Positions 16,269 through 50,067 of a stretch of DNA of 64,000 nucleotides are shown here, piece after piece. Below the pieces are notes generated by a model that was not told the DNA's origin, made no database searches, and worked only from the letters and a program-made list of their open reading frames with translations. Within the stretch, counting starts at the first letter, position 1; each line of letters begins with the position of its first letter. The translations under genes were made by a program, and so were the position numbers. This stretch comes from Alphaproteobacteria bacterium. GTDB taxonomy: Bacteria > Pseudomonadota > Alphaproteobacteria > SMXP01. Location of the stretch: assembly GCA_028285305.1 (NCBI GenBank), contig JANQPV010000004.1, forward strand, positions 152,605 to 216,604, in the 5' to 3' direction.

Positions 16269-17126
16269 TCAAGAAGCGGGACGAAACGCAGTCGTTTTGC
16301 CGAAAAAGAAGATCCCATATTGATCTGCCCGCATCCGACGGGGCTGAGCGCACGCTTCGGCGTCGTCCCTGTAGAGTGTCACCAGGGATTTCTTCGAAAG
16401 ATTTGTCGTATGCGCATAGGTTTGGTGGATCGTGAAGCCGGCGCATTGTGCGTTATCTCCGCATGCAGCTTTCGCTTCCGACCACGTGTATTGACCTTGG
16501 CTGAGTTTCGGACAATTTGGGATGGTGTAGTCCTTGCGCACAAAGTCCGCAGACGTATAAATAGGTTGATATTCGGCAGCGTACGCGTCCGCCGTCCAGC
16601 AAAAGAACTTATGCTCTTCCGAACATTGGGCGTGTTCATGGTGAGTGACGCCGCGCGCTCCGGTAGTCGCATTCTTCGGAATGATCGTATGCGCACACTT
16701 CCACGGACCGTTCCGGCTTTGCACAACGACGCTCGGCCGCGTGTGCCAATGACGATAGGCGGGACCTGGGGCGGCCGAATCGACACTCATCCATTGTCCA
16801 TAGGGCCGAAACTTCCCCGTCCACACGGACGTTTCGAGAGTGCTTTGCTTCGAGAGCATGGATTTAACGAGCCGGTCGGCGTGAATGCTATCCAACGCGA
16901 ACATCGCCGTCCCATACTGAGCCCGGCAATACGCATTCGCCTCAAGAAACGTTTTTCGCTTGTCGACGAAGACGAAGCTCTCTTCTTTAAGGGACGGAGG
17001 GGGCGGACCGGCCGCAGGATCGTGCGCGAACGCGCTCGACGTTAAGCACAAGGCCAGGATGCTCCCGGCGATGGTGCCCACTATTTTGCGCACGATCTTA
17101 GTTGCGTGTTGACCTAGCCGAACCAT
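16269..17126 (-). CDS. Secreted protein with C-type-lectin-like domain and Cys-rich PAN/Apple-like C-terminal domain
   Basis: Signal peptide MVRLGQHATKIVRKIVGTIAGSILALCLTSSAFA. The spacing of CTLD-like Cys and Trp residues fits (FLEANAYCRAQYGTAMFALDS...VWTG...WKCAHTI...AQCSEEHKFFCW). The tail reads CPKLSQGQYTWSEAKAACGDNAQCAGFTI. Fold assignment is by eye only. Confidence 0.5.
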   Translation of the reverse strand: MVRLGQHATKIVRKIVGTIAGSILALCLTSSAFAHDPAAGPPPPSLKEESFVFVDKRKTFLEANAYCRAQYGTAMFALDSIHADRLVKSMLSKQSTLETSVWTGKFRPYGQWMSVDSAAPGPAYRHWHTRPSVVVQSRNGPWKCAHTIIPKNATTGARGVTHHEHAQCSEEHKFFCWTADAYAAEYQPIYTSADFVRKDYTIPNCPKLSQGQYTWSEAKAACGDNAQCAGFTIHQTYAHTTNLSKKSLVTLYRDDAEACAQPRRMRADQYGIFFFGKTTAFRPAS

Positions 17127-17460
17127 TGTTCCCCTTTGGATCTCTTGTGTGGAGTGCGTCTGCGCCCATACCGGTCTTATTCGGAATACGCCCGGGCTGA
17201 CGTCACGGACCATAGCCTAGAATTTCCAGTCCACCAAAGAAAACAAAACGAAAAATAGTTCAAACACGGATGGGTTGAGGTGACGCGATCGGAACTCGCC
17301 TACTCGTGCTATGCAAGAGAGCGCCTGAGTTCGCCTGATTGACGCGGGTCGCGTCGCCTTCTGCGGCAAGGCAGCGGGTCTGCACCGGGCGATTGCAACA
17401 TCGGGGGCAGATGCTACTATCGCGGCAATACAAAAAGGGTAAAAAAACTGAGAGAATGCC

Positions 17461-18315
17461 ATGGCTGAAACGGCCTTACACTACGACGCCGCCTTTACGA
17501 CATTTGACCTAACGCCCTCCATTGGGACGGAAGTGCACGATATTGATCTAGGGGCAGATCTTGACGAGGACACGATCGCCGCCCTTTCGGACTTGCTCGT
17601 CGAGCGCAAGGTGCTGTTCTTTCGCGATCAACATATCTCCAAGAGAGCCCACATCGCTTTCGCCGCCCGCTTCGGTGAACTGGAAGTCCATCCGTTCACA
17701 GATAACGATCCGGAGTACGCTGAGATCATTCATCTCATCAACGACAAAGACCGCCCGCCCTTTATCAATGTCTGGCACTCAGATGTAACGTGGCGCGCCG
17801 AGCCCTCCCTGGGCTCAATTCTCCGGGCCCGTCTCGTGCCTGAGGTCGGCGGGGACACCCTCTTTGCCAATATGGAGGCCGCCTATGACGCCCTTGATGA
17901 CAAAACGAAAGAGCGGATCGACGACCTGACCGCCGTTCACGACAATGAAGGGTTTCTCGCCGGTATGAAGATGAAAGGCGCCGGCGACGAGGAGGTTGAC
18001 GCCATGCGAGAGAAATATCCGCCCTCAGAACACCCGGTCGTGCGCACCCATCCGGTGAGCGGACGCAGATCCCTTTACGTCAACCGCGCCTTCACGCGCT
18101 ATATCCGTGATATGGAACGGGAAGAATCGGACACGCTCCTCCAGAAACTCTTTTTGCAAGCCTGGATCCCGGAGGTTCAGTGCCGCTTCCGCTGGCAGAC
18201 GGACAGCTTCGCCTTTTGGGACAACAGAGGGGCCCAGCACTACGCCGCCGCCGACTATTACCCAGAGCGCCGCAAAATGGAGCGGGTGACAATCATCGGC
18301 GACCGGCCCTACTAG
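17461..18315 (+). CDS. TauD/TfdA-family Fe(II)/2-oxoglutarate dioxygenase
   Basis: 284 aa. WHSDVTWRAEPSLGSILRA (H-x-D iron ligands) and the overall TauD pattern. Confidence 0.85.
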   Translation: MAETALHYDAAFTTFDLTPSIGTEVHDIDLGADLDEDTIAALSDLLVERKVLFFRDQHISKRAHIAFAARFGELEVHPFTDNDPEYAEIIHLINDKDRPPFINVWHSDVTWRAEPSLGSILRARLVPEVGGDTLFANMEAAYDALDDKTKERIDDLTAVHDNEGFLAGMKMKGAGDEEVDAMREKYPPSEHPVVRTHPVSGRRSLYVNRAFTRYIRDMEREESDTLLQKLFLQAWIPEVQCRFRWQTDSFAFWDNRGAQHYAAADYYPERRKMERVTIIGDRPY

Positions 18316-19007
18316 GGGCAGGCGTTCTTGAGAACCAACAACCAAACGTCCGCCCCGGCTTCACGATAGTACGGGCGCGCGGTCTCTAAAACCAATCCTG
18401 CGTCATCCCACATGCGGGAAAACGACGTTATCGGCGCTTCCGGCCGCCGATCATACACGGCGCCATCAATTTCCACGGCCGTCTTCCACGGCTCCACTTC
18501 AGAAATCATCAAGACCGCGTCCTCAGACAAAAATGAGCTTACTTGATCATAAAAGCCTGCATGAACGCGCCAACCCGGGTCATTCGGACGCAAATCACCG
18601 TTCATCTCCGGAAACTGAACGGCGAAGTAGTTCGGCGGATTGGCCACGACCAGGTCAAAGCCGCCCGCTGGCCGTTCCACGTCCGCCAAATTGTCGCTCA
18701 CGAATCGAGCGACCCGCGGATCCGTACTCAGCTGACAAGAAGCCTTCACAGCGTACGGATTGATATCCGCTAAAGTAAGGCGCTGAATGAGCCCAAAATC
18801 CAATAAGCTCAAACCGATCTCGCCCAAACCGGCGCACCATTCAAAACCATGCCGAAACTCTTGCGGATAGGCCGAGATGGCGGCCACAAAACTCTGCTTG
18901 AGAAATGACCCGCCGCCGTCGAGGCCATTGGAGATGCCGCCCGCGCGCCCAAACGGCGACTGCAGGTCACTCCGGGGCAACGTCATTCTGCGATCTTTGT
19001 TGAGCAT
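18312..19007 (-). CDS. Class I SAM-dependent methyltransferase (NPP-x-Y motif IV)
   Basis: EWCAGLGEIGLSLL (motif I-like) and DLVVANPPNYF. The start is ambiguous: ATG 19007, ATG 18986, or the ORF-track start at 19133. Its stop shares the CTAG at 18312-18315 with the convergent tauD-like gene. Confidence 0.6.
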   Translation of the reverse strand: MLNKDRRMTLPRSDLQSPFGRAGGISNGLDGGGSFLKQSFVAAISAYPQEFRHGFEWCAGLGEIGLSLLDFGLIQRLTLADINPYAVKASCQLSTDPRVARFVSDNLADVERPAGGFDLVVANPPNYFAVQFPEMNGDLRPNDPGWRVHAGFYDQVSSFLSEDAVLMISEVEPWKTAVEIDGAVYDRRPEAPITSFSRMWDDAGLVLETARPYYREAGADVWLLVLKNACP

Positions 19008-19554
19008 GTGTCTTTTGGAATCTCTGTGTGGATTGATTGACAAGGCCTGCCTTCTCAGATGGTCCCAACTGTGAGGCGGACACGAGACGCTCTCGTGTGC
19101 CACTAAAGCAATTCCGCAGACGGGCCAGACCAAATAATCCGTTTCAACCTTGCCGGACAGATCGCAATACTAGCTTATCGGGCGCGATCTGACCATAAAC
19201 ATCTGTATAGGAATTGTCCAAGTATAGGGAAATCTCAGTATACCTACTCGCGCGGCGGTAAATTCAAATCTGACAACCGTGGCGCCCGGCACATGCGACG
19301 GCAGACGATAGCCCCTCATGCGGTGATGGGGAGCCAGCGAGCATTATAGGCGACTGGCGGCATTGAGTTAAAGGATGACTTCGGCTCGCCGTTGAGGCTT
19401 CAGAGCCGGGCGCGGTTGTAATTGAATGCTGCTTAAGTCGCTCCAACGCGCTAATGGGTCGAAAATGTGGTTTGTCGCTGCTATAAGACGCAAGGCGAGA
19501 TTCAGCGGTTTGCACAAAGCCATGGTGAACCGCAACTTCCGGGGGAATGGGAAC

Positions 19555-20103
19555 ATGGCGGAACAACGAGCACAACAACGTCAAGGGGGCGTCGACTACA
19601 GCATCGCTGTACGCACGGCCATTGCGAATTTAGCCTATGCGGCCATCGCGTCCTTCTTATTCTTGGCTGTATTCTCGGGTTTGGCAAATCTCTCTTTCAC
19701 GTTGATCAGCAATGTTTTCATCTGCCTCAATCTGGTGTTCAGCGCCGGTTTGGCCTTGGTCTTGATGTCGAACAGTGTCCGCGCCTTTCAATTTGGTCGG
19801 TTTGGACAGGCAGGCATTTTCCTTTTTTCCGTACTCGCCACGTTTTTGGGAACGATAGCGGCTCTCGCCGGCCACACGCTTTACGAACGCGTTTACATTG
19901 ATATGACCTCTGTGGAGGGCAGGTACATCGTTGGTGAGTACAGAGAGGCTCTCGCTCAGTTCCTTGTCGCGTCCGGCCCAACTGGAGAATCGGTCATTAA
20001 AATGGTGCAGGGCATTCAAGTGACGGAACTTATCGGCGCGGTTCTCGCGCCGATCCTGCTGAATCTGTTTTTAATCCCGTTTCGCACGCGCGGCGCCCGA
20101 TGA
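19555..20103 (+). CDS. Hypothetical membrane protein
   Basis: ORF-track frame trimmed to ATG 19555 (MAEQRAQQ...). About 5 hydrophobic helices, no family recognised. Confidence 0.45.
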   Translation: MAEQRAQQRQGGVDYSIAVRTAIANLAYAAIASFLFLAVFSGLANLSFTLISNVFICLNLVFSAGLALVLMSNSVRAFQFGRFGQAGIFLFSVLATFLGTIAALAGHTLYERVYIDMTSVEGRYIVGEYREALAQFLVASGPTGESVIKMVQGIQVTELIGAVLAPILLNLFLIPFRTRGAR

Positions 20104-20208: not shown

Positions 20209-20320
20209 TCACCCCACCGTTTCATTCACACTCTTGTTCGGCATATCGAGAGCCCCCTCGAACGGTCCAAAGAGAAGAGTCTCGTTGGGGCTGGCAGGTA
20301 TCGTAAGGCGCTGATAGTTG
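20209..20320 (-). pseudogene. Orphan 3'-terminal fragment of a Rieske-oxygenase gene (echo of 23782-23873)
   Basis: Conceptual minus-strand translation ends ...NETLLFGPFEGALDMPNKSVNETVG-stop. The intact gene ends ...NEDLLFGRFEGALDTLNQCVNEMVG-stop. That is 18 of 25 residues identical with aligned stop codons. My hand nucleotide alignment gives 63/87 identities. Confidence 0.7.
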
Positions 20321-20324
20321 AGGG

Positions 20325-22442
20325 TTATTCGTTGCCGCGTGGCTTCAACGGATAGAATTGAACGAAATTAATAAGTGAGGCGAAACATCCTGAGCAGTTT
20401 CCGATGACAGAACTTCCCCCTGATTGGTGCGAGTCGGATGACTCGGTTTTTGAGATCGCAACACCAAACAATAGATTCCGCAAATGCTTCGCCGGCACGA
20501 AATTTTGGCCCATCGCACGCTGGTAGTATGCTAAAGCGCTTGCCTCCTCCTTCTGAATCGAACCAAACCCGAAATGATATAGGAGGCCCATCAAGGTCAG
20601 TGCGCCTGGATCGTTAGCCATGGATGCTTGTTGAAGCAGCCTTACAATTTCCTGTTCAACATCGTCCACATCGTCCACATCAACCCAGTACCTGGCATCC
20701 CCTAACCGCAAAAAATGCTCCAGGTAGAATGATGCCAATAGGGATTGGGCACGAGGGTTCCCATCGTGAGCGAGCACCTTCGTCTGCTGACTTATCAACA
20801 TGAGCGATTCACGAGTGAACGGGGCTCTTTCAGCGCCATGCAAATGGCCCAAATCAATGACGCTTCGGGCTTCTTTCAGCAATTGACTGCCCCAGTACGT
20901 GACCGAGCTATTGGGGCGGACGAGTCCGGGCAAGCCGATAGCAAAGGAATAATTTACCAAAGTCTGTGCACGTACATTGCCAGCATAGGCTCCGATGATC
21001 AGCAGGTCTTCTTTCCCCAGAGACCAAACCTGGAGATCACGCAAAACATCTTCCACCTGCTTATTGATCCATTCATAATCGCGGATGGAGTTTAAGTCTG
21101 ACATCAGTTCGCGAAGCTCGCTCATATTCCGCTTCGCATGGTCCAGGTCTTCGAAACGCGTAAGGGAATACATTCTAAAGTACAAGTCATCTGAAAGATA
21201 TCCAGTGGGAACAAAACCGAAGATGGTTTGATATTCAATCAGTGCACTAATATAGTCCAGGGTGACGAATTCGGTTGCGCTTGCTTCCATCAGCCCAAGG
21301 TCTCGCAACGCCAAGATTGTGGTGCCAATCTTTTCTTCTGATAAGTCTTCCAGAGAGCCGAAAACGAAACCCACAGCCGCCGCAGGATCTTCATTGACCA
21401 GGGGTTGGAAAGGCTTGCTAAACGCAATGTCGATGCGATCTACAAACTCAGCATTCACCCATGTGTCGGGCGGCAAGCTCGACTCCGCCGTGAGTTGAGC
21501 AAGCGCGCGAACCAGTCCGTCATCAAACACACCGTCCACCGGACCTTCGAAATAGCCCAAGGTTATCAGCTGTCCTTCTAGTCGGCTCACATAGCCCTCG
21601 ACAAACCTTCGAAGCCCGTCCAGAACAATACGGTAATAGACGATCCGGTTTTGGATGGCCTGTGGAGATCCTCTGCGGAGTTCCTCCATGTCGTCCTGAT
21701 GCAAAAAATCTAGGGCCGACCGGGTCGACAACTCTAACTTTTGAAGTGGTTGGTCTCGAAAATCAGAGTCTTCCGGACTCCAAGAGCCTACTTCTACCAG
21801 GTCATCCACGACAGTCTGAGACCTGGAAGCGAATCGGGCGTAATAAAATTCGCCTTCTGGAAAGAAGGAAAAAACATAGTCGCCGATGCAATTTGTGGCC
21901 CTTTGGACTTGATCGGAATCGGGAAAGTTTTTCAGATAGCGGATTGCTTGGAGCGCTCCCTGCTCCGAAAGTTCGTGACAGCCGTATTCCGTCCAGACTA
22001 ATTCATGAGTCTTGAGCAGGTTTTCTTGGGACTGAATTGCGATGTATCCAACCAACAGCAATGTTGTCAAAAGAAGGCCGGTGACAAGTCCCATAGGCGA
22101 GATATTAAGGTGCTCGCTAAACTCATCGACAGGGGAGACCGCTCTCTTGGTGATTGAGGCGACATAACCTGACATGTCATCATCCAAATCACTAAGCCTT
22201 AAAACCCTTCCGGAGATTGCTCTCAAAAAAAGTAAGGGTTTAAGGGCAATGGCGGTTGCTAGGTGCAAGAGAGCAAGTTGGACAATAAGCGGGGCAGCTT
22301 GGAATACGAAAATCCGCCCCATGTCCGTCGGAATAGCAAGCAAAGCGCCAATTAGTGCAACGATAGCGCCCGCTATTGCCGAAAGAATAACAGTATGCAG
22401 AACGATCCGTATAACGGAAGTCTTGCGATAATAAGAGATCAC
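20325..22442 (-). CDS. Membrane protein with two peptidoglycan-binding-like modules and C-terminal Sel1-like repeats (third gene of TIR operon)
   Basis: 705 aa. Three N-terminal hydrophobic helices. QLITLGYFEGPVDGVFDDGLVRALAQL and ILALRDLGLM...ALIEYQTIFGFVPTGYLSDDLYFRM resemble PG_binding_1. Sel1-like repeats are present (GNPRAQSLLASFYLEH; NDPGALTLMGLLYHFGFGSIQKEEASALAYYQRA). The GTG start overlaps the upstream stop (GTGA). Confidence 0.65.
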   Translation of the reverse strand: MISYYRKTSVIRIVLHTVILSAIAGAIVALIGALLAIPTDMGRIFVFQAAPLIVQLALLHLATAIALKPLLFLRAISGRVLRLSDLDDDMSGYVASITKRAVSPVDEFSEHLNISPMGLVTGLLLTTLLLVGYIAIQSQENLLKTHELVWTEYGCHELSEQGALQAIRYLKNFPDSDQVQRATNCIGDYVFSFFPEGEFYYARFASRSQTVVDDLVEVGSWSPEDSDFRDQPLQKLELSTRSALDFLHQDDMEELRRGSPQAIQNRIVYYRIVLDGLRRFVEGYVSRLEGQLITLGYFEGPVDGVFDDGLVRALAQLTAESSLPPDTWVNAEFVDRIDIAFSKPFQPLVNEDPAAAVGFVFGSLEDLSEEKIGTTILALRDLGLMEASATEFVTLDYISALIEYQTIFGFVPTGYLSDDLYFRMYSLTRFEDLDHAKRNMSELRELMSDLNSIRDYEWINKQVEDVLRDLQVWSLGKEDLLIIGAYAGNVRAQTLVNYSFAIGLPGLVRPNSSVTYWGSQLLKEARSVIDLGHLHGAERAPFTRESLMLISQQTKVLAHDGNPRAQSLLASFYLEHFLRLGDARYWVDVDDVDDVEQEIVRLLQQASMANDPGALTLMGLLYHFGFGSIQKEEASALAYYQRAMGQNFVPAKHLRNLLFGVAISKTESSDSHQSGGSSVIGNCSGCFASLINFVQFYPLKPRGNE

Positions 22443-22681
22443 TTAAGGGTTTCCGATATACGGCGAAGGGCTTTCGAGATCGTACTGAACTCGGATAGGA
22501 TGGCGATTATGAACAAGCCAACAACGATAACGGAAAAACAAGCGACTCCTGCGCCGGCAAAACCCTCCAGGTTTTCGGGAAACAAATCCAGTCCGAGGGC
22601 AAACTGAATGAAAACAAAACACCAAAATAGAACATAGAGTATGATGGCTCTGATAGCGATTTGGGAGTAGTCAATCTTCAT
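22439..22681 (-). CDS. 80-aa two-TM protein (second gene of TIR operon)
   Basis: Two hydrophobic helices (AIILYVLFWCFVFIQFALGL; VACFSVIVVGLFIIAIL). Its ATG overlaps the TIR gene stop (ATGA at 22678-22681), and its own stop overlaps the next gene's start. Confidence 0.55.
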   Translation of the reverse strand: MKIDYSQIAIRAIILYVLFWCFVFIQFALGLDLFPENLEGFAGAGVACFSVIVVGLFIIAILSEFSTISKALRRISETLK

Positions 22682-23361
22682 TGCTTTGCCTTTTGATCAT
22701 TCTGGCGAGAAAAAAACAATCTGCCAACGGAGTATATTCTCCAAAAGATAACCAGAGTCAGAGCGGTCATTGCGCCCACAACCAGCTGACTTTCGGAAAT
22801 CAAGGGAGAGCCGCCCTCTCCGGGAGATCCAGTCATGTCTAAGGCATCTCGAATGATTTGCGAGGTGTCACTTCCCGCAGCGACCGCAATTCCCACCAGA
22901 AGGAACAAACTCAAGGAAATGACCGCCGATTCAAAGAAGAGGCGCTCAAAAATCGAGTGTGATCGCTGAGTTCGTTCGACAGGGACATCTATTTTCTGAA
23001 TGAAGTGTCCCAGTGCGGAGCTCAGACCCTCCCAATCCCCCCACCTTAACGCGTTAAGACTGCGAAACCCCAATGGGAGATCGTTTGGCGACAGATCTTT
23101 GGCCAGGACCTGAATCAATTTCTCGTTTTCCATCGCCAGCTCGGCTTCGTCGCGTACAAAAGAGCTTTGGATGGAGCTGGAAGTCCAAATTACAATCGCT
23201 GCTTTCGACTGATTCAGTTGAGCTGCAATTTCATCTCGAAAATCCCGAGGCCCGATGTGGTCATCCCACCAGACAGTGAGCCCGGCCCGTTCTAAGAAAG
23301 CGACAAGTTGTTGCAAATAGATTTGATCAGAACGCGTGTAGCTTACAAATACATCTGCCAC
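22678..23361 (-). CDS. TIR-domain protein with C-terminal double TM anchor (first gene of operon)
   Basis: DVFVSYTRSDQIYLQQLVAFLERAGLTVWWDDHIGPRDFRDEIAAQLNQSKAAIVIWTSSSIQSSFVRDEAELAME follows the bacterial TIR_2 pattern, including a Glu at the usual catalytic position. Two C-terminal helices (AVISLSLFLLVGIAVAAG; LVVGAMTALTLVIFWRIY). The likely start is GTG 23361 (GAGGG 4 nt upstream). The ORF-track start is TTG 23382. Confidence 0.8.
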   Translation of the reverse strand: MADVFVSYTRSDQIYLQQLVAFLERAGLTVWWDDHIGPRDFRDEIAAQLNQSKAAIVIWTSSSIQSSFVRDEAELAMENEKLIQVLAKDLSPNDLPLGFRSLNALRWGDWEGLSSALGHFIQKIDVPVERTQRSHSIFERLFFESAVISLSLFLLVGIAVAAGSDTSQIIRDALDMTGSPGEGGSPLISESQLVVGAMTALTLVIFWRIYSVGRLFFSRQNDQKAKQ

Positions 23362-23781
23362 TTTACCCTCTTTGGGAACCAATCAATCTTGGATTCTTCG
23401 ATGACGCTTTTACCCTATTTCACAATTCAGTGCGTTAGAAGGGTGCCTGGGTCGAGGGATTCTCATCTCCAATTAAGTGATCAAATTGCAAGTTCTAATA
23501 GAAGCCGGCAAAGCTCAACACTTGATGTGAATTGGCGAGTAAAATGCGAAAACAATATGGTTTCGGTGCAACATCCTCCCATTGAGCGCTTTGGGCCGAA
23601 AAATGGGGCACCTCGCTTGGTGGGAAAGGAGATGCTCGAAGTCTTCTTCCGAACCGCTTCAGCTGGAAAATAGCACGCAAACCGTGACGCTCGACTTGCA
23701 AGCTTGGTTTTGGCATCCCGAAATAAGGGAATCAGACTCTCTCGTTTCTCTCTCAAACTGCTGCTGCGCGAGCCAACCCAT

Positions 23782-24924
23782 TCACCCCACCATCTCATTC
23801 ACACATTGGTTGAGCGTATCGAGCGCCCCTTCAAATCGGCCGAAAAGGAGGTCCTCATTGGCGCCGGACGTCAGGCCTGATTGAATGGACTCACCGATCT
23901 CGAAATCTTCCCGAAGCGTATTCATGGTAATCCGATGATTGCGTTTCCAGTGAGTGTCGTCTTTACCCTCCGCCAGCGGACCATCTGTCGGCACCAGCGT
24001 CGCGAGCCGCAATTGTGTTTCGCCCGGCTCAATGGGTTCAATGGCAATCATGATCAGATGATCTTGCTGCACCAGCATCTGGAACGTCGGAAAGAGCGTG
24101 TAGATCACATTCGCCCGGTCGAGCAGCCGCCAGTCCGCTTGCGGCATCTCCTTGAAGCCCGCCATGCTGGACCGCGGCAGGACCGAGCGCAGATGCGGCC
24201 CGAACTCTTGATAGCTCGAGAGATTGTCCTCGAAGTGGGGGCCGATGGTCGCCCGGTGCGCGATCTTGAAGTGATAGGCCTCAATTCCCCCCTCCATCAG
24301 GATCTTCCAGTTGGCCTTGCAGAGGAGGGTGTCTTCGGCGGCAATCTTCATACGGTCGATCTGGAGTGCCGCGATCTCCGGCCCGAGGCCCTCTAGATAG
24401 GTGTCCAAGTCCGTCGGCGTCTCTGCGTCCGCTTCTACCCAAATGAAGCCAAAGCGCTCCTGGCACGCCAGTTCCTTTAGATTCAAAGACGACTTATCCA
24501 GATCGGGAAACCCCTCCGCCAGATGGGGCGCTGCTAAGAGCCGACCGTCGCTGCCGTAGGTCCAGGCGTGATAGGGGCAGGAAAACCGGTGGGCGCATCC
24601 AGATGCGTCGTCGACCAGCCGGGTCCCTCGGTGCCGGCACACATTGAGGAATGCGTGTACGGCGCCGTCCTTGTCTCGGGTGAGAAGAAGAGGCTGGCCC
24701 GCAAAGTCCTTGCGCACGAAGTCACCCGGCTCCGCCAACTCACTCGCATGACACATAATTTTCGGTAGCTTACGGAAGATCTTGTCCCGCTCTTCGGCGA
24801 AGCGCTCCTCGCTGGTATAGTGCCATGTGGGATTGCGCGTCACCGCGTCATCGAGATAGGCCGAGCCGGCCGCTTTCAAACCCAGAAGTTCTTCGATCAG
24901 TCCAATTTCCGTTTGTTTGTCCAT
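23782..24924 (-). CDS. Rieske [2Fe-2S] aromatic-ring-hydroxylating oxygenase, alpha subunit
   Basis: CRHRGTRLV...CPYHAW Rieske motif, plus the catalytic-domain His pair EAYHFKIAH. Confidence 0.9.
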   Translation of the reverse strand: MDKQTEIGLIEELLGLKAAGSAYLDDAVTRNPTWHYTSEERFAEERDKIFRKLPKIMCHASELAEPGDFVRKDFAGQPLLLTRDKDGAVHAFLNVCRHRGTRLVDDASGCAHRFSCPYHAWTYGSDGRLLAAPHLAEGFPDLDKSSLNLKELACQERFGFIWVEADAETPTDLDTYLEGLGPEIAALQIDRMKIAAEDTLLCKANWKILMEGGIEAYHFKIAHRATIGPHFEDNLSSYQEFGPHLRSVLPRSSMAGFKEMPQADWRLLDRANVIYTLFPTFQMLVQQDHLIMIAIEPIEPGETQLRLATLVPTDGPLAEGKDDTHWKRNHRITMNTLREDFEIGESIQSGLTSGANEDLLFGRFEGALDTLNQCVNEMVG

Positions 24925-26529: not shown

Positions 26530-26627
26530 AGCCAGCCGCTTTAGGGCCTAATAAGGGGTCAGAACTCTTTACGCGCAAAAAATGCTGCCCTAGAGTGAAG
26601 GCGAGTCGGCTCACCAGGAATTACCCC

Positions 26628-27323
26628 ATGCCGCGCAAGCCTCGTTTCTTTATCCCAGGTATCCCGCTCCAAGTGGTCCAGCGGGGGCACAATCGCGCTC
26701 AAGTCTTCTTCGAGGACGAGGAGTACGAGACCTATCTTGCCTTCCTGGCCGAGGCGACCGAACGGTACGGCTGCGCCGTTCATGCTTATGTCTTGATGCC
26801 CCATCACATTCACCTCTTGGTGACGGCGCGCAAAGAGGGGGCGGTGAGCCGCATGATGCAGCATGTTGGATTGAAGTTCGTGCCTTACATAAACCGTGTG
26901 CGGGAAACGAGCGGAACCTTGTGGGAAGGCCGCTATCGCTCAAGTCTCGTGGACGATGCTTATCTTTTGAGCTGCATGCAGTACATCGAACTTGATCCCG
27001 TCCGGTCAAAAGTCGTGCGTACACCCACACAGTACAAATGGTCGAGTTACAGGGCCAATGCCCAAGGCCGCTCGGATCCTTTGGTAACGCCCCATGTAAT
27101 TTACGAGGGGCTGGGCCGCTCCGCGCCCGCGCGCCGGACCGCCTACAGAGCCCGCTTAAGAGACCGCCTAACGCCCGCGCAGCTCGACGAAATCACCGCT
27201 GCTTGGCAGACTGGAACGCCGCTGGGAGCTAGGAGTTTTCTGGACAAGGTCGAGCGCAAGCTCAAGCAAAAGGTGGGCTATGCCAAGCGCGGCCGTCCGC
27301 CGAAACGGACTGAAGTTCAATAA
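26628..27323 (+). mobile_element. REP-associated tyrosine transposase (RAYT; IS200/IS605-like Y1 transposase)
   Basis: HUH motif (MPHHIHLLV), catalytic-Tyr region LLSCMQYIELDPVRSKVV, and YKWSSYRAN, all typical of RAYT proteins. ATG 26628. Confidence 0.8.
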
Positions 27324-43285: not shown

Positions 43286-44650
43286 ATGCAGAAGACGACA
43301 CATCAAAGCGACACCGTCGAAACACCGCCCAATACCAATCCCCCTACTGACTGGTACGCTTGGTACGCCGTTCTAATTCTGACTCTGGCATCAATCATCT
43401 CATATGTGGACCGCCAGATCCTCGCCTTGATGATCGGGCCCATCAGACGCGATCTCGGCATTAGTGATACCCAGGTCAGCCTTCTCATCGGCGCTGCGTT
43501 TGCTCTTTTCTATACGGCTCTCACACTTCCCATTGCCCGTCTTGCAGACCGGCATCCGCGCCGACTCATCATCGGCATTGGTGTCGCGTTTTGGAGCATC
43601 ATGACCTTCGTTTGCGGACTGGCAAACAAATACTCCGTCTTATTCCTGGCACGCATGGGCGTCGGCGTCGGTGAAGCATCGCTGCAACCGGCTGCCTATT
43701 CCATGCTCTCCGATCTATTTCACAAAGACAGGCTGCCGTTTGCCGTGGGGCTCTTTCAAAGCGCGACATTTGTAGGGGCGGGCATCGCTTACATATTGGG
43801 CGGCGTCCTGATCGAGTATTTGGAAAACATGCCCGAACTTGTACTACCGATCATTGGTCCGATCCGGTCCTGGCAAGCGGCATTCTTTGTCGTCAGCTTA
43901 CCCGGCCTTCTCTTGGCCGTCGTGGTTTTCATGATGCGCGAACCACCCCGAACGGGAAGGCTAAATGAAGACGAAATAAAACCAGTTCCGTTCAAAGACA
44001 TTATGCAGTTTATGCTTGAACGGCGGCTGTTGTTTTTCTCTCTGTTCGCCGGCTTTCTGCTTATGGCGACACAAGGTTTTGCCCTTTTCGCCTGGGGTGC
44101 GGAATTCTTAATCCGTGTACATGGGCTCGATCGATCGGAAGCAGGCTTGGCCTTTGGCGCAAGCGCGCTCGTGTTTGGAATTGCAGGCAGTATCACCGGT
44201 GGCTACGTCTCTTCTCGCTTGATGCGAAAAGGAGTTTCCGACGGCACAATGCGCGTCGCGGTGTTCAAATGCGTGGCGATTATACCTTTTGGCGGAGCCA
44301 TAGGCTTCATATCCGATACAACAACGGTCTTATTGCTTTTGCCGGTCGTGATATTTCTCATGTCACTTACGCCAGGCTTGGGAGCTGCCATCGTGCAGTC
44401 AGTAACACCCAACGAGTTCAGAGCACAAATGGTTGCTATCTACGGAATTGCAGTGAGTTTTCTATCTTACCTCCTGGCACCGCTCATCATTGCGCTCCTC
44501 ACCCAATACGTCTTTATGCGGGATGATGCAGTGGGTTACTCTCTGGGGACAACAGCGCTGATAACATACCCACTTGCCGCGTTGGTGCTCGCTATAGGAC
44601 TTAAACCCTACCGAAAGGCGCTCTCTGTATCCGTGGATTGGGAGAAATAG
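43286..44650 (+). CDS. MFS transporter (Spinster-like)
   Basis: YVDRQILALMIGPIRRDL, IARLADRHPRR, FLARMGVGVGEAS. About 12 helices. Start is ATG 43286 or TTG 43250. Confidence 0.8.
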   Translation: MQKTTHQSDTVETPPNTNPPTDWYAWYAVLILTLASIISYVDRQILALMIGPIRRDLGISDTQVSLLIGAAFALFYTALTLPIARLADRHPRRLIIGIGVAFWSIMTFVCGLANKYSVLFLARMGVGVGEASLQPAAYSMLSDLFHKDRLPFAVGLFQSATFVGAGIAYILGGVLIEYLENMPELVLPIIGPIRSWQAAFFVVSLPGLLLAVVVFMMREPPRTGRLNEDEIKPVPFKDIMQFMLERRLLFFSLFAGFLLMATQGFALFAWGAEFLIRVHGLDRSEAGLAFGASALVFGIAGSITGGYVSSRLMRKGVSDGTMRVAVFKCVAIIPFGGAIGFISDTTTVLLLLPVVIFLMSLTPGLGAAIVQSVTPNEFRAQMVAIYGIAVSFLSYLLAPLIIALLTQYVFMRDDAVGYSLGTTALITYPLAALVLAIGLKPYRKALSVSVDWEK

Positions 44651-44777
44651 TTTTCTCATTTGTATACGGATTTTAGATATATATAGGATTCTCGAGATTG
44701 CATAGCATGTTCCTCTTTTAAGCTTGCGTTCGAACTATTGGCGCATTCAGTTGGCAGATAACAAAGGCGAATCTCAC

Positions 44778-45734
44778 ATGTTATCATTTGGCATGGCACT
44801 TAGCGCAACTTCAACCAGTTGGGATGAGATCCTGAAGTGTACGGCAACTTTGGAAAAAGGACAGTGGGCAAGCGCTTGGATCGCTGATCACTTTATTCCA
44901 GCGCTTCCCGGCTTTGACTCAGAGCTTGATTGCCTTGAAGGTCTTTCGTTGCTCGCAGGTCTTGCAGCAGTGACAAAAAGACTCCAGCTAGGGATATTCG
45001 TCGCAGGCGTCACTTATCGGAACCCTGCGTTACTCGCGAAAATAGCGGCAACCATCGATCACATGAGTAGGGGTCGTTTCTGCCTCGGGATTGGAGCAGC
45101 ACATGTCGAGCGCGAACACGACGCGTATTTTGGGGGCTTACCCCCCATGCGTGAAAGGTCCGACAGATTAGAAGAAGCAGCGAAACTGATCAGAATGCTG
45201 TTCACATCGAACGACGCTGTAAGCTTCAAAGGCAAATACTATTCATTAGTCGACGCACCCTTCTCGCCAAAGTGCTATCGAAAGCCTCATCTCCCGATTT
45301 TGATTGGCGGCGCCGGAGAAAAGCGAACGCTGCGTACACTTGCAATGTATGGCGATGTCATGAACGTCAGCGGTCCACTGCCGAAAGTGAAGCGCAAAAT
45401 CGAAGCACTTTATCGTCACTGCGATGCTGTTGGCCGGGATCCAGATCAAATTCGAAAAACCGTGCACCACCCGGTCATGTTGTTGGATGACGAACAAAAG
45501 ATTGAACGATTTCGCCGGCGGGTTGGAACAGGGTATGCTGGTGGGGCCAATTTCAATCTAACCGAGTCCGAAGACCAGGAGCGCTATTTGGCTATCGGGC
45601 CCGCCGAGCACATCGCACGCGTTTTTAAAGACTTCGAAGAAATTGGAATCGATGAAGTGATCTTCTTGAACACGCCAAACAATCCCGATCTGTATGAAGA
45701 CCTAAACGAGAAACTCCTCAGTGGTTACAGCTGA
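44778..45734 (+). CDS. LLM-class F420/flavin-dependent oxidoreductase
   Basis: GRFCLGIGAAH, PHLPILIGGAGEKRTLRTLAMYGD. ATG 44778. Confidence 0.8.
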   Translation: MLSFGMALSATSTSWDEILKCTATLEKGQWASAWIADHFIPALPGFDSELDCLEGLSLLAGLAAVTKRLQLGIFVAGVTYRNPALLAKIAATIDHMSRGRFCLGIGAAHVEREHDAYFGGLPPMRERSDRLEEAAKLIRMLFTSNDAVSFKGKYYSLVDAPFSPKCYRKPHLPILIGGAGEKRTLRTLAMYGDVMNVSGPLPKVKRKIEALYRHCDAVGRDPDQIRKTVHHPVMLLDDEQKIERFRRRVGTGYAGGANFNLTESEDQERYLAIGPAEHIARVFKDFEEIGIDEVIFLNTPNNPDLYEDLNEKLLSGYS

Positions 45735-45995
45735 TATGCTGGCAAGGTCCCATCACAACCTGCAGGTTATTGATGTATACTCCTGATGTCCGAGTGCTGT
45801 GCAATTATCTTGCGATGAACTTGGCATCGCATACGGCGACCCAAGGAGCCGAATAGCAACCGGCGCCCCCCACTTTAGAAGACCGGGAATCAACTCTACC
45901 ATCCACGCTATTGTGACCGGTACAGAGAAAACTCATCAAGAGAGCACGAAGGTCCGCCGGCCCTGCCTGCATGTTGGTGTCTACGGCTTCAAGTG

Positions 45996-46027
45996 AAAAA
46001 ACGGTTGCAACAGAGTTGCAACCGTTT
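45996..46027 (-). terminator. Rho-independent terminator of the TonB-dependent receptor gene
   Basis: Perfect 11-bp stem ACGGTTGCAAC / GTTGCAACCGT (46001-46011 / 46015-46025) with a 3-nt loop. On the minus strand a T-run follows (A-run 45996-46000 on plus). Lies 65 nt after the receptor stop. Confidence 0.7.
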
Positions 46028-46091
46028 AGTCATGACCCAATACGGAAATTCGGAAGGGTATTTCGCGTGCTAGATCAAAATATCATTCCAT

Positions 46092-48461
46092 CTAGTTGAA
46101 TAACTCCGCGGGGCGTACTCTGAATTGGAAGATCAATTCTCGTCCGCGTTCCGCAAACAGATTGAGGGAGTCCGCATTGACGGCCCCGGGGGTTCCAGTG
46201 CCTGATCCCGACAATGGAACGTTTTGACCAACCGTCCGAAGAATCTCATTGTTCAAGTTTCGTCCGATAAATGACAACTCCCACGCACCGTCGGCATCGT
46301 ACAAGCTAACCGAGGTGTTTGCTTTATAGTAGCTGGGCTGACGGGTTCCGGGCGAACGCTGTTGCTGCGTATCGTATGAGTCGCTGTATTGTCCATCAGC
46401 GGATAACCCAAGAATGAAGTTGTTTCCCAGAGGCATCTGATAGTTTACGCCCAGCGACGCCGTGTATTCCGGCGCACGTTGAATTTCGACGCCTGAAAGA
46501 TCCAGCCCTTCGAAAGCACCACCAGGAATAACATCGACATTGCACCCTTGATCCGGCCGCTGACCAGTGAAGCAGTTGGATATGAATTGCTTGTACTTGG
46601 CATCCAAAACAGACCCAGCACCTCTGATCGAAAGCCCCTCAATCATCGGCACCTGGTACATGAAATCCATCTCTAGTCCGTCCACGTCGGCGCCAGCCGC
46701 ATTTACCGTTGTGACAACGATGGCAACCGAGTCGAATGAAGTGACCTGAAGATTGGAATAGTCATATGAGAAAGCATTTGCATTAACTTGCAAGGACCCA
46801 TCAAACAAAGTCGCCTTCACACCTATCTCATAACCTTCCACGTCTTCATCATCGTAAGTCGCCGCTTCATTCAACAGGACAGCATTCAATGCACCTTCAT
46901 CGAACCCTCCTGATTTGTAGCCTTGTTTGTATGCGGCATAAATCAAGAAGTCGTCCGTCGGACTGTAGGAGAGCGATACTTCGGGTGAAAGATTGTTGAA
47001 GCTGATTTCATCAGCACCAGGAACTGTAAACGTCTGACGAACGTAATTCCGGAACACATCGACACTCTTTTCTTCATGAGTATACCGCGCACCCATCGAA
47101 AGCTCGACTTGATCTGTGATGTCCCACACCGCCTGACCAAAGAGCGAATAAGCGCTCTGCTCTTGCTCGTTTGTGCCGTTGATTCTGCCGATTGCAGGAA
47201 TCCGGCTAACGGTACTGGTCGTTCGATGTTCATACAGTCCACCGAACATAAAGTTTAAAGGAAAGTCCCAATCAGAACTAATTCGCAGCTCTTCCGTAAT
47301 GATATTCGTCTTGTAAGAAGTCGATGTGGGAAGTGCCGAAGTTGGCAACGCAGACTGTTCCTGATTGACGTCATCATCGACATTATAGACGCCGGTAATC
47401 GACGTGAGTGTCAGCCCGTTATCCCAGGCGTAGTTACCTTCGATCGACCCTAATATGATCTTGGCTCTGCGGAAGCCATCTGCATCCGCCTCTGCGATGT
47501 CGAAAGCTGCAAGAGCTGCCGCTGATTGGTCCCCGGTGTAAATATTGCGATCAAATTTACAGTCATCAATATCAATCTGCGGAGCGACGATAGACAACGG
47601 AGTACCGAGAAAATTGGGTGAACCCAAGGGGCAGAACGAACGTTGCCAGCCGATGGGATATGAATCGATATCCCTGTCTGAAAACGTGAACTTTGCTCTC
47701 AAATCCAACGCGTCAACGGGATTTGCCGTCAGAGTGCCGCGAACAAAGATATCGGACGCATCTGGCAGACTATCGGCGCTTGACGGTAGAGCCGGCCCCA
47801 AACCGGATACCACCGGTGCATCGATATCGGTAACATTATAGAAGCCTTCTTGATCCGCATACCGTGCAAATACACGCGCTCCCACTCTGTCGCCTAGAGG
47901 CCCTGACAGAATGATCGAACCATACTTTTCTTCGGCTTCAATTTCGTATCCGCTTGAAAGCTCCAGTTCGAATTCATCGCCCGGATCTCTCGATTTGAAA
48001 CCAACCACCCCTCCCGGACTGTTTTTACCGAAGAAAAGCACTTGGGGACCGCGCAGAACTTCCAGAGTTTCTACATCGTACTGTCCCGAGAACATGAGAC
48101 TTGCCTGTGCAATCGAAACTCCGTCAAGATTGATTGCCACCGACTGATCGATCAATCCATTTCCGGTTGCAGATCCCACACCTCGCAAGTAGATCGCTCC
48201 GCCTGCTGACAGCTGAGACTGACCAGATATGAAATTGGGTACGATGGAACCAAGGTCTTCTATTGAATTTACCGCATTCTGTCGAAGAAAGTTCCCTGTG
48301 AACGCACTGATCGCAACAGGCACATCTTGTACGCTTTCTTCCCGCTTCCTTGCTGTCACCACAATTTCATCAATCTGGGCATTCACCGCAGTTGATACTA
48401 CCAAGTCCCCCGCACAGATCATCAGTGAGCTAAGTAGCAGTGATTTTTTCACTCTACGCAT
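46092..48461 (-). CDS. TonB-dependent receptor
   Basis: Signal peptide, plug region (IDEIVVTARKREESVQDVPVAISAF), and a 789-aa beta-barrel-type composition rich in Y/G/S/D/N. Confidence 0.9.
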   Translation of the reverse strand: MRRVKKSLLLSSLMICAGDLVVSTAVNAQIDEIVVTARKREESVQDVPVAISAFTGNFLRQNAVNSIEDLGSIVPNFISGQSQLSAGGAIYLRGVGSATGNGLIDQSVAINLDGVSIAQASLMFSGQYDVETLEVLRGPQVLFFGKNSPGGVVGFKSRDPGDEFELELSSGYEIEAEEKYGSIILSGPLGDRVGARVFARYADQEGFYNVTDIDAPVVSGLGPALPSSADSLPDASDIFVRGTLTANPVDALDLRAKFTFSDRDIDSYPIGWQRSFCPLGSPNFLGTPLSIVAPQIDIDDCKFDRNIYTGDQSAAALAAFDIAEADADGFRRAKIILGSIEGNYAWDNGLTLTSITGVYNVDDDVNQEQSALPTSALPTSTSYKTNIITEELRISSDWDFPLNFMFGGLYEHRTTSTVSRIPAIGRINGTNEQEQSAYSLFGQAVWDITDQVELSMGARYTHEEKSVDVFRNYVRQTFTVPGADEISFNNLSPEVSLSYSPTDDFLIYAAYKQGYKSGGFDEGALNAVLLNEAATYDDEDVEGYEIGVKATLFDGSLQVNANAFSYDYSNLQVTSFDSVAIVVTTVNAAGADVDGLEMDFMYQVPMIEGLSIRGAGSVLDAKYKQFISNCFTGQRPDQGCNVDVIPGGAFEGLDLSGVEIQRAPEYTASLGVNYQMPLGNNFILGLSADGQYSDSYDTQQQRSPGTRQPSYYKANTSVSLYDADGAWELSFIGRNLNNEILRTVGQNVPLSGSGTGTPGAVNADSLNLFAERGRELIFQFRVRPAELFN

Positions 48462-48556
48462 TGTTGCCGTCCCTCCCTTTTGCTCGTCTTCATCGTCATT
48501 TGGTCGACGCAGCGCTCGCGCACCCGCCCCTTACAAGCGAGAAACCTCGACCATTT

Positions 48557-48613
48557 GACTGACGAGTCAGTCTACAATAAGGGTGCACCCTGTCAATATG
48601 TAAACACTGTTTA
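48557..48613 (-). promoter_or_regulatory. Putative receptor promoter flanked by two palindromes
   Basis: On the minus strand: TAAACAGTGTTTAC (48600-48613), then TTGACA (48591-48596), 16 nt, TAGACT (48569-48574). GACTGAC-NN-GTCAGTC (48557-48572) overlaps the -10. About 100-150 nt upstream of the ATG at 48461. Confidence 0.4.
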
Positions 48614-49536
48614 TTTGGCCACCGCATCCGTTGCGATAAGCCTGTGCTTGGAATGTCACACCGTGAGTCTCGGGCCATTGAGACACGCTTGTCCGGCGCT
48701 GAACCTTGCCTCTTCCGAAATCTGGGATAAGCCCAACTCCGACTCTTCCGTAACAATTCCCTCTAGTTCACTGAGGGTGAGAAGAGAATGGATTGAGATG
48801 AGCACCGAGTTTAAGAAGGGCCGCGGACGAATCGCAAGGTCACACGGGCACGCTTTCTTCTTGCGCAGAAAACACCAAACCCAGACCAATCGACGCCAAA
48901 AGCCATTCTCCGCATCCGACTTTGGCGATGGTGCTTACTCTTTTTGGAAATCAGAAGTCTTTTTGTTAACATTGTTTACAGCCGAATGGTGGTCGAATTG
49001 ACCCTCCAGTTTTCGGAATGATCAACGCCTTGGGCGAGAGCGAAAACCTGTTTATCTGAACAAAGCGATATAGAGAGCGAGACTACGAGTGTTTTGCTCA
49101 GCTCAGAACTCCGGTCTGAAGTTGGCTTGTAAAGCGTTCATACAGAGCAATTTGAATCGCGCCGTTGGTCATGACTTTGTTCAGCTTAACCGTGACCTGG
49201 CCCTACATTTGCGTCCAGACCTTATGTAACTCCGAGGTTTTGGCTTTGAAAAGCCTGCTTGAACGGTAGAGTCAGGGCCCAGTGTACCAGATACCTATGT
49301 GCACGGATTGTATTGCAGTGAATTCGTCAATCTTTAATCAGGACTGATAACTCCGAGAGGGAGCAAACGATTTCTCCGTTCGGTAGTTGACTCTCAGCCT
49401 ACTGTCGAAGCTTTCGCTGTAACCTCCTTGGGGAGATCGACTCGCGATCGATGTCCAATCCTCAGAAGTTCCGGGGTGATCCTGGTTCGATGAAGAGAGC
49501 CGTCAGACCCGCACATCTTAGACATCCTTGTTGGTC

Positions 49537-49718
49537 TGAAGTGCCCCCGAAATAGTGGTCCACAATAGCGTTAGTTTTCTGGTGCGTTTTTCCAAATGAA
49601 GGAGCAAGCCATGAAACGGAAACGATATTCAGTCGAACAGATTATCGGCGTATTGAAGCAAGCCGAGATGGGCATGCCGGTCTCAGACCTGATCCCGCAG
49701 CGGCCTCAAAAATACTGA
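49537..49718 (+). mobile_element. IS3-family insertion sequence remnant (left end plus truncated orfA)
   Basis: TGAAGTGCCCCCGAAATAGTGGTCCACA resembles an IS3-family terminal repeat (TG... start). It is followed by GGAG and ATG 49611 encoding MKRKRYSVEQIIGVLKQAEMGMPVSDLI, a typical IS3 OrfA N-terminus. Similarity is lost after about 28 codons and a stop falls at 49716. Confidence 0.65.
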
Positions 49719-49992
49719 CGAGTGCCGTTCGCATTGGTAATTGAGGTTATAAGCTCACAATTCCAACCCCTCCGCCTTTCCCAGAAAGTCGTAGTGCACC
49801 CTCGGGTGAGCTAAAACTGTGCTAATTGGCGAGTCTGCGGAGCCAAGAAGTCAAGGAGGTCAACCCCGTAGGCTCGACTGGGCTAGCTGTTACGACTTAC
49901 CAAGATTAATGAAAGCGCAACAGCCTCTCGCTCAGCTCGAGGCATCCTCGCCTCACTTCGATCCTCGATCGAAGGCCCGCCGGTGGCTCGGA

Positions 49993-50067
49993 TGGTGGGC
50001 GCGGGCAGGATTGAACTGCCGACCCCTACGATGTCAACGTAGTGCTCTCCCACTGAGCTACGCGCCC
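49993..50067 (-). tRNA. tRNA-Val (anticodon GAC)
   Basis: The reverse complement folds as a cloverleaf: acceptor GGGCGCG/CGCGCCC, D-stem GCTC/GAGC, anticodon stem CTACG/CGTAG with loop TTGACAT, T-stem GGCAG/CTGCC with loop TTCAATC, then discriminator A and an encoded CCA. Confidence 0.9.

Follow-up and report, generated by a model that had tools for sequence, protein, structure and literature searches.

An apparently acquired three-gene TIR cassette whose membrane pair recurs, in part, beside a caspase in a second locus

Three overlapping genes in a low-GC cassette

We analyzed a 64,000-nucleotide window, the whole stretch of DNA considered here, from an alphaproteobacterium (assembly GCA_028285305.1, contig JANQPV010000004.1, positions 152,605 to 216,604), in which three minus-strand genes, g1, g2 and g3, encode a TIR protein with two transmembrane (TM) helices, a very small membrane protein and a large membrane protein with wall-binding modules. 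In the open reading frame (ORF) listing they occupy 22678-23382, 22439-22681 and 20325-22442, and adjoining genes share four nucleotides, ATGA at 22678-22681 (g1/g2) and GTGA at 22439-22442 (g2/g3), exactly as described in an earlier reading of the letters alone (the sequence-only reading). We take the genes for an operon because these overlaps couple them. The end of g1 also stands as first given; its start at 23382 probably does not, since a GAGGG site a few bases upstream of GTG 23361 and the public gene call for the contig, which is 227 amino acids long, make that codon the probable true start. All three products are predicted to be inner-membrane proteins. Identical DNA is recorded in one public assembly only, the Logan assembly of SRR20820731.

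A repeat search placed the trio between two copies of an 86-nucleotide direct repeat with 73% nucleotide identity, which enclose 3.46 kb consisting of a 399-nucleotide leader and g1 to g3 (Table 1). Read in frame, the copy beyond g3 (copy B) ends in ...NETLLFGPFEGALDMPNKSVNETVG and a stop, and the Rieske oxygenase gene on the other side ends in ...NEDLLFGRFEGALDTLNQCVNEMVG and a stop; the C-terminus VNExVG-stop, common to both copies, is missing from the seven nearest Rieske homologues. Copy B has changed at sites that are elsewhere conserved, such as FGRFEG, which now reads FGPFEG, and both copies have a host-like GC content of 0.56-0.57. The cassette itself stands at 0.49, compared with 0.585 in the adjoining Rieske gene and 0.57-0.60 in the further flanks, close to the contrast of about 45-50% against 58-62% first estimated from spot counts. 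Given this low GC content and the duplicated Rieske 3' ends on either side, the three genes appear to have arrived together, as a horizontally acquired unit inserted where a chromosomal gene ends (its 3' side). Possible routes are an attachment-site-like duplication produced in trans by a recombinase, the decay of a larger island, or the replacement of most of a tandem paralogue. The nearest genomes, Marinicaulis-like metagenome-assembled genomes (MAGs) with ~60% identity in the Rieske and TetR proteins, have only the TetR-Rieske pair in common with the window; they contain no trio, and no empty site could be demonstrated in them. No convincing ORF, Rfam family or sigma-70 consensus promoter was found in the leader.

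The g1 protein opens with a TIR domain. Pfam TIR_2 (PF13676) matches it at E = 3.9e-17 and 63.3 bits (gathering cut-off 28), an AlphaFold2 (AF2) model built on 58 relatives has a predicted local distance difference test (pLDDT) score of ~96 over residues 1-125, and a Foldseek search of the PDB with this model returned TIR domains only, at E ~1e-6, including those of SPARTA TIR-APAZ, SARM1, AbTir, Toll-like receptors and MyD88. The glutamate of SSFVRDEA, E72, is invariant across the 58 relatives and aligns opposite the glutamate in the WTNYEL segment of AbTir, which we take to be the catalytic E208; with this residue conserved at the catalytic position, the g1 TIR is predicted to be NADase-competent. 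These results bear out the earlier call of a TIR_2-like domain with a glutamate at the NADase position, and the two C-terminal TM helices noted at that time are supported by both hydropathy and a helical hairpin in the AF2 model. Hydropathy and a positive-inside count place the TIR domain inside, followed by the two helices with an acidic outside loop of ~25 residues between them and an inside tail rich in K and R. The top PADLOC match of g1 is the CBASS TIR-SAVED effector model (6.7e-12), with the ThsB models far weaker; together with the Foldseek matches to SPARTA, SARM1 and AbTir, this makes effector-type NADase TIRs its best counterparts. It scores 17 bits against NCBIfam ThcB4, a Thoeris type III model with a cut-off of 220, and 18.5 bits against Pfam ThsB_TIR, with a cut-off of 21.2.

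By the same topology methods g2, already recognized as an 80-residue protein with two hydrophobic helices, has its N-terminus inside, an acidic outside loop of 12 residues and a basic inside tail. No family in Pfam, PADLOC, NCBIfam or PHROGs matches it, and a word-indexed search of 5.8 billion proteins retrieved only g2 itself. An assignment to the SLATT domain was considered and rejected, g2 being only 80 residues long and having no Pfam match.

The three N-terminal helices expected in g3 were found at residues 19-38, 45-70 and 114-136. With the N-terminus inside and an inside loop of ~37 residues before the third helix, the remaining 569 residues are predicted to lie outside, in the periplasm, a location that fits a peptidoglycan-binding domain (PGBD). 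Two PGBD modules had been proposed for this tail. The first is confirmed by Pfam PG_binding_1 (PF01471; E = 2e-7, 31.5 bits, cut-off 23, residues 285-335) and by a custom profile hidden Markov model (HMM; E = 3e-16, residues 284-340); the second is only a degenerate stretch at 378-426 (independent E-value, i-E, 0.078), in which internal BLASTP detects no similarity to the first, although some tandem-PGBD matches cover residues 285-422. The custom HMMs were built from the repeats of multi-PGBD and multi-Sel1 proteins that g3 matched in a library of 1.84 billion proteins. Similarly, one of the proposed Sel1-like repeats is solid (residues 596-649; custom HMM E = 1.2e-16, multi-Sel1 proteins at E ~1e-12, and a PDB sequence match to 6ork, whose alignment also runs over residues 481-524) and two are degenerate, with Pfam Sel1 (PF08238) below threshold (E = 0.07, 14.2 bits, gathering 30.7). 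As the sequence-only reading had it, no enzymatic domain is detectable in g3 with Pfam or NCBIfam. An AF2 model of g3 from the single sequence had a pLDDT of 39.9, and about 200 residues of the tail (137-283 and 427-480) are assigned to no domain.

A second locus with a caspase in place of the TIR

For full-length g3 the word-indexed search, of 5.8 billion proteins, brought up nothing but the query. An exhaustive phmmer search of 1.84 billion representatives gave 171 matches, and nearly all of the best 150 of the 171, which were examined, cover the Sel1 and PGBD segments only. The exception is P0178, a protein of 157 amino acids that aligns to g3 residues 2-75 with 39% identity (library-wide E = 2.9e-4, pairwise E = 4e-14). 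Its contigs come from two samples, JGI 3300000714 and SRR061012, in each of which P0178 is encoded third in a tight operon. The order at this locus (L165/L166), from an unrelated metagenomic source, is a caspase with a C-terminal 2TM hairpin, a 13-nucleotide gap, a 78-residue 2TM protein, a 7-nucleotide gap, and P0178. The caspase, of 354 amino acids, matches Peptidase_C14 at E = 1e-18 and the PADLOC caspase model at 2e-16, and we read its GHG and DCCHSG motifs as the catalytic dyad.

The small proteins of the two loci are also related. Over their full length and without gaps, g2 and the 78-residue protein share 26% identity and 58% positives (pairwise BLASTP E = 5e-12). Similarity between short hydrophobic proteins was judged by Smith-Waterman alignment against 2000 shuffles in which the composition of every TM and loop segment was kept. 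The g2 pair scored 108 (shuffles 31.6+-5.7), and the N-terminal hairpin of g3 (g3N) scored 130 against P0178 (shuffles 28.5+-6.2); in both comparisons 0/2000 shuffles attained the observed score. The hairpins of the TIR and caspase effectors have the same layout, with a loop of ~25-30 residues and a short basic tail.

What is conserved is thus a unit of an effector with a 2TM hairpin, a 2TM protein of ~80 residues, and a 2TM hairpin carrying the motifs KTSVI, LAIPTDxGRIF and KPLLxLR. This layout is found in the window and in L165/L166, two distinct loci only. Since homologues of g2 and g3N follow the caspase-2TM gene in the same order in L165, the two loci differ by a swap of effector, TIR for caspase, and keep the membrane pair. 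Beyond the shared hairpin the third proteins differ, the one in L165 continuing as a basic cytoplasmic stretch of ~80 residues and the one in the window as a third TM helix and the periplasmic PGBD/Sel1 region. By this comparison the PGBD/Sel1 'sensor' of g3 appears to be a lineage-specific add-on and the membrane core the conserved unit. Co-conservation of the trio, suggested as a check by the sequence-only reading, therefore holds in part: g2 and g3N are kept beside a caspase-2TM gene in one locus, and the whole of g3 with its PGBD/Sel1 tail is not.

Other genes surround the caspase operon. At L165:1945-5199, and also in L166, the operon is followed by a gene for a predicted lipoprotein of 282 amino acids (signal peptide, LSSC lipobox), which might stand in for the fused tail of g3 as an extracytoplasmic partner of its own. 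DUF4160 and DUF2442 genes, presumably a toxin-antitoxin-like pair, lie downstream in L165. A weak EACC1-like gene, below threshold at E = 0.027, precedes the caspase, and a Bro-N gene just upstream matches the PADLOC candidate PDC-S05 at 1e-9. The copy in L165 is in this way adjacent to a candidate defense gene, and the copy in the window has no known defense genes within a few genes on either side.

Relatives of the TIR, known systems and neighboring genes

Queried with g1 alone, GTDB yielded nothing; with a small TIR alignment, its species genomes yielded 79 loci (L086-L164), at 36-49% identity and mostly in alpha- and gammaproteobacterial MAGs. Complete proteins number 54. In 22 of these a single TM helix, at about residues 145-230, precedes a tail of at least 100 amino acids; another 10 combine one TM helix with a short tail, 7 contain several TM helices and 15 are soluble, making 39/54 membrane-anchored. 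TPR repeats occur in 14 of the 54 and FGE-sulfatase domains in 5; MORN and alpha/beta-hydrolase domains are also present. Examples from this clade lie at L086:5992-7362, L097:6001-8025 and L139:684-3251. The TIR clade of g1 therefore looks to be usually membrane-tied, often in one chain with an extracytoplasmic binding domain, and by analogy g1 and g3 together resemble this arrangement split over two proteins. These fused proteins contain the closest TIRs (~40-49% identity) and have the same succession of cytoplasmic TIR, TM helix and extracytoplasmic ligand-binding or solenoid domain. They differ in being single polypeptides, and PGBD and Sel1 are not among the 25 commonest of their 45 domain families. 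The contexts of the 79 loci are highly varied, and no homologue of g2, of g3 or of the 225-residue membrane ORF described below was found among the neighbors.

Two loci with TIR genes were set apart by their context. In a Rhodomicrobium MAG (L091:372-10196) a TIR-3TM gene lies among genes for trypsin-FHA and PP2C-FGE-sulfatase proteins, and one of the trypsin-FHA proteins also has TPR-S and a weak PGBD. These domains belong to the conflict-system vocabulary described for multicellular bacteria by Kaur et al. 2020 (PMC7159879), who also report the wall-associating domains Sel1, OmpA and PASTA after a TM segment in iSTAND systems. Elsewhere (L004/L005:344-7032; GCA_000374205.1, KB893851.1), three TIR genes, one of them ThsB-like, cluster with QueC, an Ogg-HhH glycosylase, TPR-S and a nearby resolvase in what looks like a defense island.

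That no described system has this set of partners, as first supposed, is in agreement with PADLOC, NCBIfam and Pfam, which gave no named match. The constant parts, g2 and g3N, appear to be new: neither belongs to a family in Pfam, NCBIfam, PADLOC or PHROGs, and no description of them was found in the literature. By analogy, the closest parallels to the trio in its working are the membrane-proximal conflict systems described by Kaur et al. and the membrane variants of Thoeris, which are taken up below. In the EACC1-caspase 'System 4' of Kaur et al., a small constant TM protein was proposed to be a membrane sensor that activates a killing domain, with swappable partners (PMC7159879). The likeness lies in the membrane-proximal arrangement and in the weak EACC1-like gene before the caspase-2TM gene of L165. 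However, that match is the sub-threshold one given above, the window has neither a caspase nor an EACC1 gene (its leader holds no credible ORF), and the g2/g3N pair is undescribed in PMC7159879 and absent from Pfam. The E. coli TIR-II and BcTir/Tpr systems also combine a TIR with an alpha-solenoid repeat protein, fused or split, but no extracytoplasmic placement of the TPR repeats was found for them (PMC11350192; bioRxiv 10.1101/2023.05.26.542521); the repeats of g3 are predicted to lie in the periplasm, past the TM helices and alongside a PGBD.

Other known systems are further removed. The cassette consists of g1 to g3 only, and has no CD-NTase or pyrimidine cyclase as in CBASS and Pycsar and no Ago as in SPARTA and other short pAgo systems; g1 is a TIR with two TM helices and has no APAZ. 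In Zorya, ZorAB is an inner-membrane complex whose peptidoglycan-binding periplasmic part, OmpA-like in ZorB, relays an envelope event to cytoplasmic effectors. The trio resembles it in having inner-membrane proteins with a peptidoglycan-binding periplasmic part, but g2 and g3 have no MotAB or ZorAB match in PADLOC or Pfam, the effector is a TIR and not ZorC/D, and the wall-binding domain is PG_binding_1, unlike the OmpA-like fold of ZorB.

The cassette is flanked by Rieske, ECH, TetR, TauD and P450 genes, and the rest of the window, ordinary for an alphaproteobacterial chromosome, includes genes for SecB, a Tim44-like protein, HisB, HslV, a TonB receptor, P450s, TauD and MFS transporters. A membrane ORF of 197-225 amino acids (19426-20103, plus strand), convergent with g3, has a GC content of 0.53, intermediate between those of the cassette and the flanks, and no family match in any library scanned. 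A small methyltransferase gene with an MTS domain (18312-19133, minus strand) matches PHROG 35227, of unknown function, at 5e-14 and PADLOC mad2 weakly. Both were considered as members of the system and rejected because of their position beyond the direct repeat. At a distance of 3 kb from the cassette is a gene for an IS200-like Y1 transposase (26595-27323, plus strand), for which no connection with the insertion was found. A cysteine-rich ORF of 314 amino acids with an N-terminal hydrophobic segment (16269-17213, minus strand) has no match in Pfam, NCBIfam or PHROGs. Further along, 6 kb at ~0.50 GC (44000-50067) contains an MFS transporter, a luciferase-like monooxygenase and a TonB-dependent receptor; it ends at a tRNA-Val gene (49993-50067), after which GC is 0.63, and may mark another island boundary.

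Table 1. Features of the cassette and its edges, in window coordinates
Feature	Position	Strand	Basis or remark
g1, TIR-2TM protein, 227 aa from GTG 23361	22678..23361	-	stop overlaps g2 start
g1, alternative start TTG 23382, 234 aa	22678..23382	-	ORF listing
g1 TIR domain, aa 1-125, predicted cytoplasmic; E72 in SSFVRDEA	22987..23361	-	TIR_2, AF2, Foldseek
g1 C-terminal 2TM hairpin, helices ~137-161 and 190-226	22681..22953	-	hydropathy, AF2
g2, 80 aa, two TM helices, N-in/C-in	22439..22681	-	homologue of 78-aa protein L165:3497-3733
g3, 705 aa, three TM helices and 569-aa periplasmic tail (predicted)	20325..22442	-	
g3 N-terminal conserved 2TM hairpin, aa 1-77, KTSVI/LAIPTDxGRIF/KPLLxLR	22212..22442	-	homologous to P0178
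g3 third TM helix, aa 114-136, predicted to put tail in periplasm	22035..22103	-	hydropathy, positive-inside count
g3 PG_binding_1 domain, aa 284-340	21423..21593	-	Pfam, custom HMM, multi-PGBD matches
g3 degenerate second PGBD-like stretch, aa 378-426	21165..21311	-	custom HMM i-E 0.078
g3 degenerate Sel1-like repeats, aa 482-511 and 552-575	20718..20999	-	custom HMM i-E ~0.1
g3 Sel1 repeat, aa 596-649	20496..20657	-	custom HMM, PDB, multi-Sel1 matches
Leader, presumed promoter region	23362..23781	-	GC 0.48
Repeat copy A, functional Rieske oxygenase 3' end, last 28 codons and stop	23782..23867	-	
Repeat copy B, decayed duplicate of Rieske 3' end, ~30 nt past g3 stop	20209..20294	-	far insertion edge

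What the cassette may do

The reading that we prefer, tentatively and from sequence comparison, is that the trio is an acquired, self-contained inner-membrane conflict module, serving abortive infection or immunity, with a TIR NADase as its output. The membrane core of such a complex would combine g2 with g3N, the first pair of TM helices in g3, and would be bundled with the effector hairpin. The output would be the cytoplasmic TIR NADase of g1, held at the membrane by its own hairpin, and the periplasmic tail of g3, with its PGBD and Sel1 modules, would tie the core of this copy to the cell wall. An envelope disturbance, such as peptidoglycan cleavage or membrane perturbation in phage entry or lysis, would alter the packing of the hairpins, upon which the tethered TIR domains would cluster. 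Clustering switches on TIR NADases such as SARM1, AbTir, SPARTA and TIR-SAVED; here it would trigger NAD+ hydrolysis, and the cell would be halted or killed. That a caspase is swapped for the TIR suggests that the N-terminal domain is the executioner and not a signal generator. Swaps of the killing domain on a constant set of partners are typical of conflict systems (PMC7159879), and the near-absence of g2 and g3 relatives fits fast-evolving conflict genes. A more specific form of this reading, which we regard as rather doubtful, would have the trio be a split receptor with the topology of a Toll-like receptor, in which the g3 ectodomain, a core of three hairpins and the cytoplasmic TIR detect phage damage to the wall, the membrane core serving as an adaptor for a TIR or a caspase.

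Several observations count against the conflict-module reading. No sequence similarity was detected between the 2TM hairpins of g1 and the L165 caspase. The second locus lacks the PGBD/Sel1 tail, so wall sensing is not conserved. No third locus was found: scans of JGI metagenomes, GTDB genomes and IMG/VR with the g3N pattern gave chance matches only, as checked with two-sequence HMMs, and no plasmid or phage sequence matched g3 or P0178 in tblastn. An enzymatic fold may be hidden in g3 residues 137-283 or 427-480. The flanks are metabolic or housekeeping genes, nothing related to defense was found among the other window ORFs scanned, and the 3.46-kb cassette contains no integrase, transposase or other mobility gene. 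Of the membrane complex coupling an envelope cue to TIR activity that the sequence-only reading proposed, the TIR, the membrane location and the topology are borne out, and the PGBD/Sel1 sensor becomes an add-on of one lineage; the defense role is still one that we infer, and the window is no defense island.

An envelope role outside immunity seems unlikely. The trio would then be a wall-anchored scaffold or signaling unit, with a TIR that serves for protein interaction or for local, NAD+-linked regulation. Periplasmic regions with PGBD and Sel1 or TPR repeats are known in envelope organizers such as PodJ of Caulobacter, and the host here is likewise alphaproteobacterial; the flanking genes are not defense genes, and many of the TIR relatives have TPR tails of unknown role. 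However, a foreign, patchy and essentially unique cassette is unexpected for a core envelope function, the catalytic glutamate is strictly kept, and the caspase swap together with the defense-candidate neighbors in L165 suggests a killing output.

We give still less credence to a toxin-immunity or addiction cassette, in which g1 would be a membrane-tethered NADase toxin inactivated by g2, g3 or both, with no sensing of phage. The cassette is small, horizontally acquired by its appearance and encodes no other function, translation of the effector gene is coupled to that of a very small partner, and the presumed toxin-antitoxin-like pair lies downstream in L165. Against this, a partner of 705 residues with wall-binding modules exceeds what an antitoxin needs, and neither locus has a mobility gene. 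Such a cassette would nonetheless be compatible with the conflict module that we prefer, as abortive-infection systems are often built in this way.

Also improbable, in our view, is Thoeris-like signaling, in which the g1 TIR would make a signal of the cyclic ADP-ribose type and g2, g3 or both would be membrane-disrupting effectors that bind it. In many of the Thoeris types described recently, the TIR is accompanied by a small multi-TM effector, such as ThsF/DUF2270 (3 TM) or the SLATT protein ThsH, and types II, V and VII resemble the trio in combining a TIR with small multi-TM proteins in a short operon that brings about NAD-derived death (Yirmiya et al. 2025, bioRxiv 10.64898/2025.12.03.692087); g1 itself gives weak matches of the ThsB type. 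However, the g1 TIR is itself membrane-anchored, and it scores below the cut-off of every named Thoeris model, far below in the case of ThcB4 (17 bits versus 220). Pfam, PADLOC and NCBIfam found no signal-binding domain in g2 or g3 (SLOG-SIR2, Macro-TM, caspase-like, DUF2270 or SLATT), and the cytoplasmic parts are tiny (12 + 18 residues in g2, 18 + ~37 in g3). The caspase that replaces the TIR in the homologous locus yields no diffusible nucleotide signal, and g2/g3N is therefore unlikely to be a nucleotide receptor.

A eukaryote-facing pair of TIR and Sel1 effectors, offered earlier as an alternative, is very improbable: its TIR fold does resemble that of Brucella BtpA/TcpB, among many others, and Sel1 proteins are used by some intracellular pathogens, such as Legionella, but all three products are polytopic inner-membrane proteins with the TIR predicted on the cytoplasmic side, there is no signal peptide and no secretion-system gene nearby, and the host is apparently a free-living, marine-type alphaproteobacterium with many P450 and Rieske genes.

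With two known loci only, the module may be a rare curiosity. If it is a defense system, it would provide a sensing core that is embedded in the membrane and can take a TIR or a caspase alike for its output, and a direct example of an effector swap between the two best-known death domains that bacterial immunity shares with that of animals. A recent survey of TIR systems in E. coli remarked that TM-plus-repeat features like those of Toll-like receptors seem to be absent from bacterial TIR systems (PMC11350192). The TIR relatives that join a TM helix to extracytoplasmic repeat or lectin-like domains point to a topology in the style of Toll-like receptors in Alpha- and Gammaproteobacteria, and the window would offer a compact three-gene case for the transmembrane activation of a bacterial TIR.

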